This document shows positions 6,424 through 57,915 of a stretch of DNA of 64,000 nt, one piece after another. The translations under genes were made by a program, and so were the position numbers. The notes under the pieces were generated by a model, which saw nothing but the letters and a program-made list of their open reading frames with translations, was not told where the DNA came from and ran no database searches. Source of the DNA: Escherichia phage T5. The DNA lies in sequence record NC_005859.1. One strand, 5' to 3'. The first letter of the stretch is position 1. The number at the start of each line of letters is the position of its first letter.

Positions 6424-6834
6424 ATGACTACTCCAACTCAGTGGACTGATGAACTGTTCGAAAAAATGTCTTCCGAATACGTTGCTCGTATGGAGCAATT
6501 CCCAGAGGATGAACGTCCGGGTGTTAGCATGGAAATTGTTAGCGAAATTGCCCAGGAAAATGGTGTAACTCCGAACGGTTTTCGTATGAAGCTGACTAAA
6601 GCAGGTTTGTATATTAAGAAAGCTGCTGGTTCTACTTCTAAATCTAGCGCATCTACTGGAGAAAAAGCTTCCGGTGGTTCTCGTACCTCCAAAGCTCAAG
6701 CCCACGCCGACCTTCGCGCAGCATTCTCTGATGCTGGCTTAGCACCAGATTTTCTGGATGATGCAATTATCGACAAACTGACCGGTAAAGCGGCTGCTCA
6801 TCTGGCAGAAGCAATCCGAGCTATCACTAAGTAA
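6424..6834 (+). CDS. hypothetical protein, probably abundant
   Basis: 136-aa ORF with E. coli-preferred codons (ctg, cgt, ggt); promoter plus RBS aaggaaa upstream. Confidence 0.65.
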   Translation: MTTPTQWTDELFEKMSSEYVARMEQFPEDERPGVSMEIVSEIAQENGVTPNGFRMKLTKAGLYIKKAAGSTSKSSASTGEKASGGSRTSKAQAHADLRAAFSDAGLAPDFLDDAIIDKLTGKAAAHLAEAIRAITK

Positions 6835-7613: not shown

Positions 7614-8585
7614 ATGACTAATGTAAAAGAATTTATTAAACGCTGTCAAGAAGCATATTATCAAGGCATGTCTTTAATCTCTGATGAAGAATATGATCGC
7701 CTGGTAAAACGCTTCCCGTTAGAGGAAGAGATCGGGCCTAAGGGTGATATTCCACATCTATATCGTATGTATTCTTTACAGAAAGTTTACTATAACCGTG
7801 GTGATAAACCACCATTCAATCCTTTAGGTCAGGTGGAAACCGATAAGTTAGATGGTTGTGCAATTTCTCTGCTATATATTAACGGCGAATTTGTTCAAGC
7901 ATTAACCCGCGGTAATGGTATTCTGGGGAATGATGTCACAAGCAACGTAAGATTGCTGAACATTCCTAAAAAGATTTCCCAAAAAGTACCTACTCAAATC
8001 ACTGGTGAAGTTCTAATTACAAAAGAAGTAGAAAATAAACGTAACTTTGCCTCTGGTGCTATTAACCTCAAAGATAGCGATGATTTCGTACAACGTATCG
8101 GGGAAGGTGGTTTAATCTTCGTTGCATACGGTATCCAGTGTTCTGCTGAATCTGTAGGTATTACAGAAGCATATTTAAAAGATATGCTTTGGCTAGAGAA
8201 TGAGAACTTCTTAACAGTTGTTAATGTGCGTTCCTTCTTTAAATGGATTCCGACGGACGGTAAAGTTGTTCGTATTAATGACAACAACAAATTCTTCCGT
8301 GAAGGCTGGACTAATAAATTCCCTCGTGGAGCATTCGCTATTAAAGAGGATGAAGAAGGCGAGATTACAACTCTTACTAAAGTTGAATGGCAGGTAGGGG
8401 CTTCGGGTAAAGTAACTCCAGTTGGTTATTTTGAACCGGTAATTATTGATGATGCTACAATTGTTAAAGCAACTCTTAATAACGTTGATTATATTAACTC
8501 TCTCGATCTAGAGATCGGTTGCCAGATTCGAGTGATTCGTGCTGGTGGTGTAATCCCGTGCATAGTAGAGCGAGTATACGATTAA
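7614..8585 (+). CDS. NAD-dependent DNA ligase, N-terminal part (adenylation and OB domains)
   Basis: 323 aa; LigA-like N-terminus and KLDG adenylation-lysine motif. Confidence 0.8.
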   Translation: MTNVKEFIKRCQEAYYQGMSLISDEEYDRLVKRFPLEEEIGPKGDIPHLYRMYSLQKVYYNRGDKPPFNPLGQVETDKLDGCAISLLYINGEFVQALTRGNGILGNDVTSNVRLLNIPKKISQKVPTQITGEVLITKEVENKRNFASGAINLKDSDDFVQRIGEGGLIFVAYGIQCSAESVGITEAYLKDMLWLENENFLTVVNVRSFFKWIPTDGKVVRINDNNKFFREGWTNKFPRGAFAIKEDEEGEITTLTKVEWQVGASGKVTPVGYFEPVIIDDATIVKATLNNVDYINSLDLEIGCQIRVIRAGGVIPCIVERVYD

Positions 8586-8728
8586 TACATAACCCTTTGC
8601 TACCCATCTACCATATCGGAATTATAAAGTGGTTATTGACATTTTCGCCGCTTAGGTATATACTATTATCATTCAGTTGAGGGATAGAAAGTTATGGCGA
8701 GGGTAAGCAAAGTTAGTTAAAATTGTAG

Positions 8729-8757
8729 TTGCTAAATGCTTAAATACTTGCTATAAT
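8729..8757 (+). promoter_or_regulatory. sigma70-type promoter between ligase halves
   Basis: -35 TTGCTA, 17-bp spacer, extended -10 TGcTATAAT. Confidence 0.55.
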
Positions 8758-8787
8758 ATTTATATAAATTGATAAGGAAGAAATTTG

Positions 8788-9567
8788 ATGAAAATCGAAA
8801 TTCCAACACAATGTCCCTCTTGTGGTTCTAAGCTAGATCTTGTCAACGGACAATTATTCTGTCGTAATAAGTCCAACTGTCCAGCGCAATCAAGTAAGTT
8901 AATTGAGAACTTCTGTACAAAAATGAAGTTAAAGGGCTTTGGCCCGAAAACTATTGAGAAGCTGGAGCTGACGAAGATTTCAGAACTATTTTACCTAACC
9001 GAAGAAGATTTGGTTAGAGCCGTGGGTAGCAAGGTTGCCGCTAAGTTAATTAGCGAATTAAATACTAAAGTTCGCGGAGACATTGACTTTGGTTCAGTTC
9101 TCGGTTCTTTAGGAATCCCTCTAATTGGAGAGGTTGCAGCAAAGAAATTATCCCAAAATTGCACTAGCTTTCAAGATGTGAAGGCTGACGGCAAGGCTGG
9201 AGAAAACTATAAAGCCTGGCTAAATTCCCCACAAGGCAAGGATGTAATCGAATTACCGTGGAAATTCTCAAAGGGTATTAAGGGTGCTAAAGCTGAGGTC
9301 ATCATCACTGATGGTCTAGTAGCCCAGCCAAATGGAATCACGGTGTGTATTACCGGATCTTTGCAAGATTTTGCAAATCGAACGGATGCAACAAACTATT
9401 TAGAAGGTCTAGGATATACGGTTAAGAAATCCGTTACCAAAGACGTCAAATACCTAATCTGTGAGGATGAATCGAAGCGTTCTTCCTCATCTTATAAGAA
9501 AGCCGAAACGAATGGGATAGAAATCCTGTCGATTAAAGAACTATTGGAGAAAAATAATAATGTCTAA
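8788..9567 (+). CDS. NAD-dependent DNA ligase, C-terminal part (Zn finger, HhH, BRCT-like)
   Basis: Cys4 motif CPSCGS...CRNKSNCPAQ typical of LigA zinc finger; separate ORF about 200 bp after the N-terminal part. Confidence 0.75.
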   Translation: MKIEIPTQCPSCGSKLDLVNGQLFCRNKSNCPAQSSKLIENFCTKMKLKGFGPKTIEKLELTKISELFYLTEEDLVRAVGSKVAAKLISELNTKVRGDIDFGSVLGSLGIPLIGEVAAKKLSQNCTSFQDVKADGKAGENYKAWLNSPQGKDVIELPWKFSKGIKGAKAEVIITDGLVAQPNGITVCITGSLQDFANRTDATNYLEGLGYTVKKSVTKDVKYLICEDESKRSSSSYKKAETNGIEILSIKELLEKNNNV

Positions 9568-10327
9568 ACTGAACTGGAACGTAGAAGGTGTAACCGAGTC
9601 TCTGAAAGCAAAAGCCACTGCTCTGGGTGTTGATGTAATCTCTCAAGAACAAGTAGCTGCTATCGCTGCTGAACTGGCTGCTGAAACTGGCAAAGACGTT
9701 ACCGCTCGCTCTGTTGGCTCTAAGCTGCGTAAAGAAGGTTTCGAAGTACAGAAAGCTAACGAAGTACAGAAATCCCCGTGGACTCCTGAGCAGGAAGCTG
9801 AACTGGTTGATTTCCTGAACGCTCATGCTGGTCAGTATACTTATGCTGAAATCGCTGCTGCTGTAGCTGGTGGTCAATTTGGTGCTAAGCAGGTACAGGG
9901 TAAGATCCTGAGTCTGGAAATGACAGCATCTGTTAAGCCGACCGAAAAAGCTGCCGCTGTTCGTTCCTTCACTCCGGATGAAGAAACTGACTTTGTTAAT
10001 CAGGTTGTTGCTGGTGCTACTATTGAAGCTATCGCTGCTCACTTCGGTCGCAATATTAAGCAGATCCGTGGTAAAGCTCTGAGTCTGCTTCGTGAAGGTC
10101 GTATCGCGGCTATGCCGGTACAGGAAACTTCAAGTGCTAAAACTCGTGAAGATCTGCTAGAAGGTCTGGATCTGGTTAACATGACCGTTGCTGAGATCGC
10201 TGAGAAAACTGGTAAGTCTGAGCGTGGTGTTAAATCTATGCTGTCTCGTCGTGGTCTGGTTGCTAAGGACTATGATGGTGCCGCTAAGCGTGCTAAACTG
10301 GATGCAAAAGCTGCGGCTGCTGAATAA
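9560..10327 (+). CDS. hypothetical abundant protein with internal repeated HTH-like modules
   Basis: 255 aa; strongly optimised codon usage; repeated ~45-aa units (TPEQEAELVDF / TPDEETDFVNQ / MTVAEIAEKTGKSERGVKSML). Confidence 0.7.
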   Translation: MSKLNWNVEGVTESLKAKATALGVDVISQEQVAAIAAELAAETGKDVTARSVGSKLRKEGFEVQKANEVQKSPWTPEQEAELVDFLNAHAGQYTYAEIAAAVAGGQFGAKQVQGKILSLEMTASVKPTEKAAAVRSFTPDEETDFVNQVVAGATIEAIAAHFGRNIKQIRGKALSLLREGRIAAMPVQETSSAKTREDLLEGLDLVNMTVAEIAEKTGKSERGVKSMLSRRGLVAKDYDGAAKRAKLDAKAAAAE

Positions 10328-10358
10328 TCTGGTAAATTAAACCTAAGGGGAGGGGGCT

Positions 10359-11867
10359 ATGCTCCTTCCCCTTTTTGCATTTAGAAGGCACGAAAGCGTG
10401 CAAAGGAGAATGACCTTGTTTAACGTGCAAGCTGTAGTGTTGAAGATGCTTCTAGCTTCCGAACAGAAGCAAATAGCATTGGAAACATTCTCAAAACTGC
10501 ATAAAGATCATTTTAATGACGCTTTCTCCTCAATTTACCAAGCCGTCCAGAATTATTATAAAAAATATAACACAATGCCGTCCATTGACGCACTGATGCT
10601 TGAGGCTAATAGGAACGCCCGCCTTTCTCAAGCTCTAGTCGTTTTAGCTAACACTCAAATTCCAGAAGTTAGCATGGAACAGGCACTTGAAGTCCTAGAG
10701 GCCGAGTATACACAGGATTTATTCCTGAAGCTTCTAGAAACAGACGTGCTTCAAGATTTAACAATGCTGGATCAGGGAGAAATTCTTAACCGAGTTGCCT
10801 CCCTTCACTTAAAATTAGAAGAGAAAGTAACGAATACTGGAAAAGTATTCAACGCAGATAACATGCGTATTTTCCAGAGAGAAGAAGATACCAAACTGAA
10901 CTTAATCGCTCTTGGTATTTGTAATGAGTTCGACGCTCAAATTGGTTTAGCTCGCACAGAAACGTTACTGCTTGGTGGTTGGCGTGGTACTGGTAAATCC
11001 ATTATCTGTTCAAACATACAGGTTGGAGATATTGCTCCATACTTCTCAATTGAGATGAAAGAACATGAAGTATTTAGACGTAATCTAGCCATGTTAGCTG
11101 GTGTATCAGCACTAGCAATGCGAAATAATACTCTAGAAGGTGCAGCTCTGTTGAGATTAGCCAGAACTAGAGCTAGAATGTTTAACGGTGGTGAAGAGCT
11201 TTTCGATAACTTCGTTAAACAATACACAATGGCTAAGATGAGTGATTTCTACGATATGGAAAGTAAGCTAATAGAAGGATATGAGCTACATACTCCTATG
11301 ATTATTGTTTATGATCCTGAGCTGTCTATTACAACAGTTGACGTAGAATTAAATAAATTAGTTGCTAGATATGGGGATAAAGTTACAGTAGCTTTACTTG
11401 ACTATATTAACCAAACCCGACTTCCAGATTCTAAAACCATTGATATGTATGACTGGAAAGAACAGATGGTTGTTAGCTCGTCTTTCAAATCCATCTGCCA
11501 GAAACATAACGTGGCTGGTGTAGCTCCTTACCAGATTGATCAAGATGGTAGAACACGTATGTCAAAAGGGATTCTTGATTCCGCAGACATGGCTGCTAAT
11601 CTTAATGCTGCAAAAGCTGATAATGGTCAAGGTGCTATTATGTTTGACTTCGTTAAGACCCGTTCTTCTGATAGCGTGAAGTTTATGCCTAAAATGAACT
11701 GGGAAACCCTGCGGATGGATAACACTACCAACCTAGCAATGGAAGATATATCTCAAATGGAAGCTGAGTTCGTTATCCCTATTGAGAAGGATAAGCCGGC
11801 TCAATCTAAACGTGCTAAGAAAGACAAAGCTGAAAATTCAACAGGTGAACAGGCCAGCGATATATGA
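10359..11867 (+). CDS. DnaB-like replicative helicase
   Basis: Walker A GGWRGTGKS; RecA-like C-terminal half; exact start uncertain (10359 has ggagg RBS, alternatives 10410/10416). Confidence 0.75.
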   Translation: MLLPLFAFRRHESVQRRMTLFNVQAVVLKMLLASEQKQIALETFSKLHKDHFNDAFSSIYQAVQNYYKKYNTMPSIDALMLEANRNARLSQALVVLANTQIPEVSMEQALEVLEAEYTQDLFLKLLETDVLQDLTMLDQGEILNRVASLHLKLEEKVTNTGKVFNADNMRIFQREEDTKLNLIALGICNEFDAQIGLARTETLLLGGWRGTGKSIICSNIQVGDIAPYFSIEMKEHEVFRRNLAMLAGVSALAMRNNTLEGAALLRLARTRARMFNGGEELFDNFVKQYTMAKMSDFYDMESKLIEGYELHTPMIIVYDPELSITTVDVELNKLVARYGDKVTVALLDYINQTRLPDSKTIDMYDWKEQMVVSSSFKSICQKHNVAGVAPYQIDQDGRTRMSKGILDSADMAANLNAAKADNGQGAIMFDFVKTRSSDSVKFMPKMNWETLRMDNTTNLAMEDISQMEAEFVIPIEKDKPAQSKRAKKDKAENSTGEQASDI

Positions 11868-17973: not shown

Positions 17974-18258
17974 ATGCTTACAGAGCCTGATGCTCACCAA
18001 TTATTGGTCGGTTCCTCATTCATTTTGAATGAATCAACAATAGTTGATAATCCAAATAAATTGTCTAATAGGCAACTGGCAGAATATCTAGGAATTTTAA
18101 GTCTACGAAATTATGCCGAATACAAGTTTACAAACGATCCTAGTTTGGACATACAATATGTTCCAGTATGGATACCACGTTTAGTAATCGACACTAACCC
18201 ACTAATCGCAATTAACAAATCGAAATTAATCTTTAAAGAGGAAATAAAATATGGCTAA
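17974..18258 (+). CDS. hypothetical protein
   Basis: 94-aa ORF; poor codon usage. Confidence 0.4.
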   Translation: MLTEPDAHQLLVGSSFILNESTIVDNPNKLSNRQLAEYLGILSLRNYAEYKFTNDPSLDIQYVPVWIPRLVIDTNPLIAINKSKLIFKEEIKYG

Positions 18259-19024
18259 GTCTTGGGGCGAAACTACTGGCGGTTCTAACGATAAAATCGA
18301 ATTCCTGAAGTTCAACAACGGTATCACTCGTGTTCGTATCGTTTCTGGTGTTCTTCCACGTTATGTCTATTGGCTGACTAATAAAGAGGGTAGCGTAGCT
18401 CCTTTCGAATGTCTCCGTTTTAACCGTGACAAAGAGAGCTTTGTTCGTGGTAAAGCTGATCCGGTTCATGAGTTGGGCTTCTTTGAGAAAGAGCTGGATA
18501 AAGATGGCAATCGTGTACCGCTGAAACCGAAGAAAAACTATATCGCTTTTGTTATCGACCGTTCTGATAACAAACTGAAAGTAATGGAAGTCAAAGCTAC
18601 TATTCTGAAAGGCATCCAGTCTATCATGAAGCAGTTGAATCTGGCAACTCCGTTTGATATTGATATTTCTATCGAGAAAAAAGGCAAAGGTTTCGATACT
18701 GAGTATGATGTACAGCAGATTGCTGCTATGCAGTTCCAGATTAAGCTGCAAGATCCTAACAGTGCAGAATCTAAGCAATATGCTGCAGATGTAGATCTGA
18801 TTGGTGAAGCTATGTGTGACGAAGATGGCGACATCATTAAGTTCGAGAAAGTTCCTTCTCTGGAACAAACCTATCCGGTTCCTACCTATGAAGAGCAGAA
18901 AGAAGCAATTCAAGCCTTCATGGAAGGTCGTGAGAATAAAGATGACGATGCCAAGTCTGGTAACAGCAATGCTGGTTCTCAGAAAGGTATTGACCAGGAA
19001 GCTGCAAGCGATCTGGATGACTAA
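18251..19024 (+). CDS. abundant acidic-tailed protein, possibly ssDNA-binding
   Basis: 257 aa; strong RBS agagga; optimised codons; acidic C-terminus DQEAASDLDD as in many SSBs; function inferred only. Confidence 0.65.
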   Translation: MAKSWGETTGGSNDKIEFLKFNNGITRVRIVSGVLPRYVYWLTNKEGSVAPFECLRFNRDKESFVRGKADPVHELGFFEKELDKDGNRVPLKPKKNYIAFVIDRSDNKLKVMEVKATILKGIQSIMKQLNLATPFDIDISIEKKGKGFDTEYDVQQIAAMQFQIKLQDPNSAESKQYAADVDLIGEAMCDEDGDIIKFEKVPSLEQTYPVPTYEEQKEAIQAFMEGRENKDDDAKSGNSNAGSQKGIDQEAASDLDD

Positions 19025-57507: not shown

Positions 57508-57915
57508 TTATTCGCCTGCGGCTTGTTTTACTTCATCGGCAACGCCTAACAGTTGCGCCACGGCGTCCAGCGTTTCCAATTTTGCACTTTCCAGTGATGC
57601 CAGATCGTCAGCGTCTTTGATAATACCGGAATCGATGGCATGTTTTGCAATCACACGCACGTAGTGCGCTTTGCGGATAGAACTGCCGCCGCCAACCTTG
57701 CGAGGTTTATCGCTTTTCTGATACGCTTTCGCGCTGGTCAATTTTGAGCGAACAGACACGGGAGAAGCCGCGCCAACTGCTTTTGCAATCTCTTTTAAAC
57801 CGTCGCTATTTGCGAAATCTAAACCGTTTTCATTAATTAACTGCTGGTACATGGAAACAGCTTTCTGAGTGTTTTCTTCATTCCAAGCGAATTTTGCGGT
57901 TTTAGCGTTAGTCAT
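57508..57915 (-). CDS. A2: A2-like pre-early DNA-binding protein
   Basis: 135-aa ORF immediately after A1 in transcription order; size and position match T5 A2. Confidence 0.65.
   Translation of the reverse strand: MTNAKTAKFAWNEENTQKAVSMYQQLINENGLDFANSDGLKEIAKAVGAASPVSVRSKLTSAKAYQKSDKPRKVGGGSSIRKAHYVRVIAKHAIDSGIIKDADDLASLESAKLETLDAVAQLLGVADEVKQAAGE

Follow-up and report, generated by a model that had tools for sequence, protein, structure and literature searches.

Gene D5 of phage T5 encodes an abundant protein of four helix-turn-helix modules, probably a coat on replicating phage DNA

Results

An early gene between ligase and helicase

The DNA analysed here (the window; 64,000 nucleotides of record NC_005859.1) is the final 64 kb of the Escherichia phage T5 genome, right terminal repeat included, as placed by the coordinates of the CRISPRi-ART annotation. 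Our subject is the open reading frame (ORF) of gene D5, which, in the T5 annotation, lies between ligase subunit B (ligB) and a DnaB-like helicase, in the early replication module (Table 1). The ORF is confirmed: it starts with ATG, and its product has a pI of 6.3 and is 17% alanine. An exact-sequence look-up of the 255-amino-acid (aa) protein returned UniProt D5_BPT5, 'Putative transcription factor D5', which is GenBank AAS77164.1, 'D5 protein', and PHROG 323, 'transcriptional regulator, D5-like', matches residues 1-253 (E=1.2e-71). Positions 9000-11000 share 100% DNA identity with T5 records AY692264 and AY587007; the CRISPRi-ART annotation labels T5.118 as D5 (67310-68077 of NC_005859), other T5-like records name the ORF 'D5 protein/DNA-binding protein', and AY692264 labels it 'putative transcription factor (Myb-like)'. 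This is an already known gene, T5 D5, familiar since the 1970s along with its general role. A first-pass annotation, made from the sequence alone, had allowed that either a clear known homologue or a lack of elevated codon adaptation would undo its account of the ORF: the homologue exists, being the named gene itself, while codon adaptation turns out to be the highest in the window. Other gene names vary among T5 annotations, 'D6' being the primase in AY692264 and the DnaB-like helicase in the CRISPRi-ART table, and 'D3' being assigned to two different ORFs (AY692264, NC_005859-based tables).

Two strong early promoters drive a ligB-D5 unit, and a consensus scan of their region gives TTGACA-17-TATACT (11/12) and TTGCTA-17-TATAAT with TG; P-N25 and P-N26 are annotated further upstream. 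The start of D5 and the end of ligB overlap by 8 nt, and an intrinsic-terminator-like hairpin follows the D5 stop and ends the highly expressed unit, at the place where phage HdH2 carries an annotated 'terminator' feature. In a marine relative (L003), ligB is preceded by a promoter that fits the consensus at 12/12 positions, and D5 is followed by a hairpin at the equivalent place. The annotated dnaB ATG falls in the loop of the T5 hairpin, so that either the true dnaB start lies downstream of 10359, or expression of the helicase requires that the hairpin be read through or unfold. Upstream, the NAD-dependent DNA ligase is split into ligA and ligB, with the two strong promoters in the gap; this split is kept in distant relatives, and L006 has an extra 279-aa ORF between the halves.

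Table 1. Gene D5, its predicted modules, its expression unit and other genes named in the text (window positions; HTH, helix-turn-helix; AF2, helices in the AlphaFold2 model)
Feature	Position	Strand	Description
Promoter P-K28b	8636-8664	+	strong early, drives ligB-D5 unit; AY692264 annotation
Promoter P-K28a	8729-8757	+	strong early, drives ligB-D5 unit; AY692264 annotation
ligB (NAD-dependent ligase subunit B)	8785..9567	+	co-transcribed, upstream of D5; ordinary codon usage
Shine-Dalgarno-like GGAG	9546..9549	+	10 nt 5' of D5 ATG; read from sequence
Gene D5 (T5.118 / T5p116)	9560..10327, stop codon included	+	255 aa, 27.1 kDa
Module M1	9572..9757, residues 5-66	+	tri-helical HTH; W6; recognition segment R50-S-V-G-S-K-L-R-K58; AF2 11-22, 29-43, 49-58
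Module M2	9767..9940, residues 70-127	+	tri-helical HTH; W74-T-P-E...Q113-G-K-I-L-S, then conserved linker V125-K-P; AF2 76-88, 95-101, 109-118
Module M3	9956..10129, residues 133-190	+	tri-helical HTH; F137-T-P-D-E-E...R170-G-K-A-L-S-L, then conserved linker M-P-x-Q; AF2 139-150, 155-162, 166-178
Module M4	10136..10267, residues 193-236	+	sigma-70 region 4-like HTH; T209-V-A-E-I-A-E-K-T-G...R-G-V-K-S-M-L-S-R-R-G; AF2 210-217, 221-231
C-terminal tail and helix	10268..10324, residues 237-255	+	D-Y-D-G-A-A-K-R-A-K-L-D-A-K...; AF2 240-254, block pLDDT 84-92
Intrinsic-terminator-like hairpin and T-run	10345..10383	+	13 bp stem, 8 GC pairs; 18 nt past D5 stop
dnaB (annotated)	10359-11867	+	DnaB-like helicase, 502 aa
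ligA	7614-8585	+	NAD-dependent DNA ligase, other part
T5.113 (T5p111)	6424-6834	+	136 aa; early ORF
D11	18251-19024	+	257 aa
A2, right terminal-repeat copy	57508-57915	-	135 aa; pre-early

Codon adaptation and protein dose

With the weights of Sharp & Li 1987, the codon adaptation index (CAI) of D5 is 0.695, ranking first among the 58 gene-like ORFs of the window (median 0.25, z=3.7); the flanking genes are lower (ligB 0.235, dnaB 0.258), and the major capsid gene reaches 0.63. A second set of weights, derived from 28 E. coli K-12 ribosomal-protein, EF-Tu, EF-G and rpoA genes (4,884 codons; str/S10/spc/alpha region), again places D5 first of 58 at 0.762, against 0.32 for ligB; D5 thereby exceeds the average of the very genes that define the weights (0.684, range 0.546-0.839). 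On these empirical weights the single top codon is used at 70% of D5 codons, and w falls below 0.1 at just 3 of them. Among 15 genes compared by effective number of codons (Wright's Nc), D5 is lowest at 31.2 (capsid gene, 34.2), and in relative L006 the D5 gene, at 37.4, is second lowest of 12. The first-pass view that codon usage here is far more E. coli-optimal than in the neighbouring genes thus holds on both scales.

As a heuristic, top CAI in the window picks out the major capsid protein together with the DNA-binding or predicted DNA-binding D5, D11, T5.113 and A2. D11, which AY692264 lists as a 'hypothetical protein', gives a match to PHROG 1607, 'single strand DNA binding protein' (E=8e-106), and has the third-highest CAI (0.55 and 0.67 on the two sets; Nc 33.7); T5.113 is fourth (0.56 and 0.64), and A2 is also raised (0.45 and 0.54).

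The very high expression that had been read from codon bias is confirmed at the protein level: D5 is highly abundant in T5 and BF23 lysates, where its band ranks with the strongest beside those of the capsid and tail tube, and absent from virions (PMC10644984), and by spectral count it belongs to the leading proteins of phiR2-01 preparations (PMC8624392). A combination of high transcription, codons of the top grade and a terminator past the gene explains why the dose of D5 exceeds that of its neighbours. Knock-down harms the phage, the CRISPRi-ART class of D5 being 'Fit' (PMC11879866 supplement), and D5 is at once among the most abundant proteins of the T5-infected cell and required for infection. 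A role as the DNA-binding trigger of DRT4 was considered and discarded, that trigger being T5 ORF55. As to function, the title of McCorquodale et al. 1979 (cited in PMC12630848) speaks of a DNA-binding protein with effects on replication and on the expression of late genes. There is no solved structure of D5, and no modern D5 biochemistry was found in the accessible literature. Rice and colleagues reportedly found in 1979 that gpD5 binds duplex DNA cooperatively, and the papers of that year reportedly put its mass at ~29 kDa, as compared with the 27.1 kDa calculated for the ORF product.

Four modules with a common charge layout

An AlphaFold2 model based on 40 homologues (50-81% identity) has a predicted local distance difference test score (pLDDT) of 93.1 and shows three three-helix bundles (M1-M3), a further helix-turn-helix (HTH; M4) and a terminal helix, so that the 'about four HTH-like modules' proposed beforehand are indeed four. 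M4 has, by DSSP, two full helices plus a short 3-residue turn, and its third segment is basic (+4). Across the homologues W6, R50, K55, L56 and R57 are invariant in M1, as are G171, K172, L174, S175 and P186 in M3; in the C-terminal tail G240 is invariant, and D237 and K246 are at least 90% conserved. We infer that this tail and its helix are a candidate protein-protein or cooperativity element.

The internal duplications suggested earlier are also there, the obvious one being M2/M3. The motifs TPEQEAELVDF, TPDEETDFVNQ and VAEIAEKTGKSERGVKSML lie at residues 75-85, 138-148 and 210-228, respectively. Smith-Waterman comparison of M2 with M3 gives z=7.5, a score that 0 of 500 shuffles reach, whereas the remaining pairs range from z=-0.3 to 2.6, with M1-M2 at chance. 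Profile-profile comparison (hhalign, with module alignments from the same 40 homologues) relates M2 to M3 (96.4%, E=1e-9) and, more weakly but in register, M3 to M4 (78%, E=2e-5), M1 to M2 (52%, E=1.4e-4), M1 to M4 (53%, E=1.4e-4) and M1 to M3 (39%); it did not find a relation between M2 and M4 (7%). M2 and M3 are the sole obvious recent duplication, and the other modules are more distantly related.

One charge layout recurs in all modules and is conserved in the family, with acidic helices 1 and 2 followed by a basic third segment (family means +1.5 to +4.1). The 18 positions that are K or R in at least 90% of the family are concentrated in the recognition segments.

Resemblance to other HTH proteins

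Each quarter of D5 draws a different HTH-type match from Pfam: HTH_33 at 32-68, Myb at 71-100, HTH_23 and EutK_C at 145-184, and Sigma70_r4_2 at 204-230. Only the last exceeds its gathering score (PF08281; 28.6 bits against a cut-off of 25.7, E=1e-6), and Sigma70_r2 was not found in D5 at E<=10, the other 200 residues being three further HTH modules. M2 and M3 have sub-threshold Myb, HTH_23 and LuxR-type matches, and their fold is a generic three-helix HTH; Myb/SANT (PF00249) stays below its gathering score (17.6 bits against 24.4), and the triple-Trp signature of Myb was not found, W6 in M1 and W74 in M2 being the only tryptophans of D5. There was no match in NCBIfam, and PADLOC returned one weak match over the M4 HTH (mad1, E=0.0016, 16.7 bits), with no defence or anti-defence label that applies.

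A sequence search of the PDB with whole D5 gave at best E=0.56 (a Myb protein), and a whole-chain Foldseek search of the PDB gave at best E=0.05, to generic multi-HTH proteins, with no solved equivalent of a four-module single chain; in the BFVD viral structure library the whole architecture is matched by D5 orthologues alone. Nor does D5 resemble in sequence or fold the histone-like phage proteins phi29 p6 and HU-type TF1. For the single modules the best structural match is the DNA-binding domain (DBD) of Caulobacter crescentus GcrA (PDB 5yiu/5yiv), and they have the fold of that N-terminal domain; hhalign aligns it end to end with M3 (78.8%, E=1.6e-5), and with M1 at 65%. Membership of the GcrA family is nonetheless not claimed: Pfam GcrA (PF07750) matches neither T5 D5 nor its modules at E<=10 and gives the homologues 17-19 bits against a cut-off of 26.9, pairwise Smith-Waterman scores of the GcrA DBD with single T5 modules are not significant (z<=1.8), and searches of PDB sequences with the M3 and M1 profiles retrieved designed HTH repeats, engrailed variants, TraR and RcsB, and not GcrA. 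The failed retrieval, the lack of a Pfam match and the non-significant pairwise scores lead us to call the modules GcrA-like tri-helical HTHs. The C-terminal sigma-70-interacting domain of GcrA was not found in D5 either, whose C-terminus is one 15-residue helix.

A related module lies within T5 itself. M1 has a homologue in the pre-early protein A2, at the N-terminus (residues 5-61; hhalign 94.8%, E=4.8e-8), with a common motif K-F-x-W-N-E-E-N-T, and the Pfam family Phage_T5_A2 (PF26822) is precomputed on several D5 homologues, consistent with this homology. The 'KFAWNEENT' of A2 fits the D5-family consensus. T5.113 is a paralogue of A2, both matching PHROG 1725, 'DNA binding protein' (E ~1e-50), and its N-terminus aligns weakly with M1 (59%) in the same register as A2. 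It is called 'D3' in one annotation and 'hypothetical' in another, and is classed 'Fit' in CRISPRi-ART.

The family beyond T5

A D5 profile searched against 1.84 billion representatives (50%-identity clusters) found 654 clusters at E<=1e-3 and 78 at E<=1e-30, and the best matches are nearly all 235-260 aa long. Metagenomic relatives, marine and other, at 50-53% identity (L003-L007) keep the gene order PC4-ligA-ligB-D5-DnaB-primase-PolA. In the marine T5-like relatives L003, L004 and L005, a SET-domain gene (PF00856, 121 aa; 8144-8509) lies between the DnaB-like helicase and the primase, where T5 has an HNH endonuclease.

The number of modules varies. Five-module variants occur (P0135, with an additional copy of M2, P0208 and P0214), and four proteins have 6-10 D5-like modules each (P0251, P0265, P0266, P0275). 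Proteins of 506-569 aa from marine phage-like contigs (P0247 and P0267; L009 2579-4099 and L010 3396-4916) have an N-terminal region with a LuxR/GerE- or sigma-70-region-4-type HTH, followed by 4-5 tandem D5-like modules.

Discussion

What this analysis adds to gene D5 is descriptive: a four-module, GcrA-like HTH architecture, a module common to A2 and T5.113, a conserved charge pattern, a conserved promoter-ligB-D5-terminator unit and a quantified codon adaptation. The accessible records carry no description of the four-module architecture, the GcrA-like fold, the homology of M1 with A2 or codon adaptation of ribosomal-protein grade. The known status of the gene is unchanged by this, and the modular architecture is of modest interest.

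We consider it likely that D5, an essential early protein made at structural-protein levels, coats replicating T5 double-stranded DNA (dsDNA) stoichiometrically and largely without regard to sequence. The first-pass annotation had suggested a 'stoichiometric nucleoid or transcription-machinery binder', such as a modifier of the host nucleoid or of host RNA polymerase (RNAP), and one half of this survives: a stoichiometric DNA binder with a role in transcription fits the 1979 title, while the host targets are unlikely. T5 destroys host DNA at the pre-early stage via A1 (bioRxiv 10.64898/2026.04.02.716235). Considering that host DNA is thus lost before the early gene D5 is expressed, the substrate of D5 should be phage DNA, and we reject a modifier of the host nucleoid as unlikely.

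With its acidic helices 1 and 2 and basic third segment in each module, the protein could use up to four recognition helices on DNA. As a string of four HTH modules, one monomer would fill successive major grooves with as many as four recognition helices, while the conserved linkers (VQKA, VKP, MPxQ) and the C-terminal helix would set the spacing and mediate neighbour-neighbour contacts, that is, cooperativity. Phage DNA replication may need the resulting nucleoprotein as its template in order to continue; this nucleoprotein may also drive the early-to-late switch, with early promoters occluded or remodelled and late ones permitted, and so work like phi29 p6. The high dose that such a coat demands would come from strong P-K28a/b and ribosomal-protein-grade codons, with the terminator insulating the weakly expressed helicase gene. 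In favour of a coat we also count that the other highest-CAI early genes of the window, the single-stranded DNA-binding protein D11 and the A2-like T5.113, likewise encode DNA binders.

Several points weigh against this picture. D5 is near-neutral to acidic (pI 6.3, net charge -1; family mean -3.2), which is unusual for a non-specific DNA coat, and HTH modules of the Myb, GcrA and sigma-region-4 types are typically sequence-specific readers. The predicted template modelling score of the AlphaFold2 model is just 0.52, too low to fix the relative arrangement of the modules and, with it, the four-groove model. In the AT-rich marine relative L003 the Nc of the D5 gene is 41.5, mid-range, and a strong bias is not evident. 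Lastly, T5 record AY692264 puts the note 'D5 protein' on the adjacent dnaB ORF, while UniProt, AY543070, T5_ev219 and DT57C place the name D5 on the 255-aa ORF; the latter, majority assignment suits a product described as DNA-binding and reportedly of ~29 kDa, whereas the dnaB ORF encodes 502 aa.

Perhaps, then, the modules do read sequence, and D5 is a conventional transcription factor that turns late genes on or early genes off, its four HTHs recognising a long composite operator at T5 promoters in the manner of Myb R2R3 or GcrA, with the replication defect secondary. The database label 'putative transcription factor' and the 'transcriptional regulator' of PHROG would suit this, as would the fusion of distant module arrays to a LuxR or sigma-region-4-type HTH protein, and the mechanism of the T5 early-to-late switch was still called 'unknown' in a 2020 study (PMC7472727). 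However, capsid-level abundance and a CAI at the level of ribosomal proteins fit a stoichiometric protein and not a regulator, stoichiometric DNA binding is also the role of the other top-CAI early gene products, and no specific operator is known, an operator search not having been made here. We regard such a factor as unlikely.

The resemblance of M4 to sigma-70 region 4 raises a different scenario, one that we hold to be very unlikely, in which host RNAP is the main target: M4 or the C-terminal helix would dock on the polymerase, for instance at the beta-flap or at sigma, and turn it away from early promoters towards late ones, by sigma appropriation or GcrA-like recruitment, and DNA binding would be secondary. 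gpD5 was reportedly part of a T5 transcription-replication complex described by Ficht and Moyer in 1980; the Sigma70_r4_2 match lies above its gathering score, the activator GcrA, which gives the best structural match, binds sigma-70 (7ye1 and 7ye2 contain full-length GcrA), and a late-gene phenotype stands in the 1979 title. Yet RNAP purified 3, 15 and 25 min after infection carried just gpA1, a pb8 fragment and gpT5.026 (PMC7472727), with no ~27 kDa band despite the abundance of D5, which argues against a stable polymerase complex and makes the modifier or stable binder of host RNAP proposed at first pass improbable. Pfam, moreover, finds neither sigma region 2 nor the sigma-interaction domain of GcrA in D5, and the dose needed for such a role would be near the number of RNAP molecules, far under what is observed.

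Abundance of this order could also serve protection: a D5 coat might keep host methyltransferases, restriction enzymes and other DNA-targeting defences off the phage genome, the effects on replication and late genes following from lost protection. T5-like phages escape Dam, Dcm and restriction-modification (R-M) methylation by an unidentified 'nonspecific mechanism', for which a DNA-binding protector has been proposed (PMC10644984); D5 is hyper-abundant, and an acidic outer surface is expected once its basic helices face DNA. On the other hand, the insensitivity of T5 to restriction is attributed to pre-early functions, whereas D5 belongs to the early genes of second-step-transfer DNA; avoiding methylation and resisting restriction can also be separated (PMC10644984). 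It is highly improbable that protection is what D5 is for.

Returning to D5 as a coat on replicating DNA, a bolder form of the idea can be stated, although we would give it only a slim chance: D5 could stand as prototype for 'poly-HTH chromatin' proteins of phages, its covalent GcrA-like array of four modules polymerising on all new phage DNA with an acidic surface outwards, such that one coat would explain replication template activation, the early-late switch and escape from Dam/Dcm/R-M methylation. Its module would be the one common to A2 and T5.113, with a copy number that varies in viral relatives (five-module variants, LuxR or sigma-region-4-type fusions). For experiment, the handles are the GcrA-like four-module array, the module common to the essential pre-early A2, and the acidic body with a basic recognition helix in each module.

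How does D5 compare with known systems? GcrA is a low-copy, methylation-sensitive activator, whereas D5 combines four DNA-binding domains and lacks one that interacts with sigma-70; likewise, D5 differs from sigma-70 and LuxR-type proteins in having neither sigma regions 2 or 3 nor a receiver or ligand domain. A2 and T5.113 are, like D5, codon-optimised DNA binders of the same phage that share the M1-type module; each carries one such module and an unrelated C-terminal half in 135-136 aa, in contrast to the four of D5, and A2 acts in second-step DNA transfer and not in replication or late expression. The nearest functional parallel we would draw is phi29 p6, an abundant architectural protein that activates replication and modulates the early-late switch (PMC4974454). 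Its sequence and fold are unrelated, it is a ~12 kDa protein that oligomerises along DNA where D5 is a 27 kDa covalent string of four modules, and it acts at the ends of protein-primed origins, which are not present in T5. Nevertheless, p6 is a phage-encoded dsDNA binder that coats the viral genome, and its phenotype is of the same class as that of D5.

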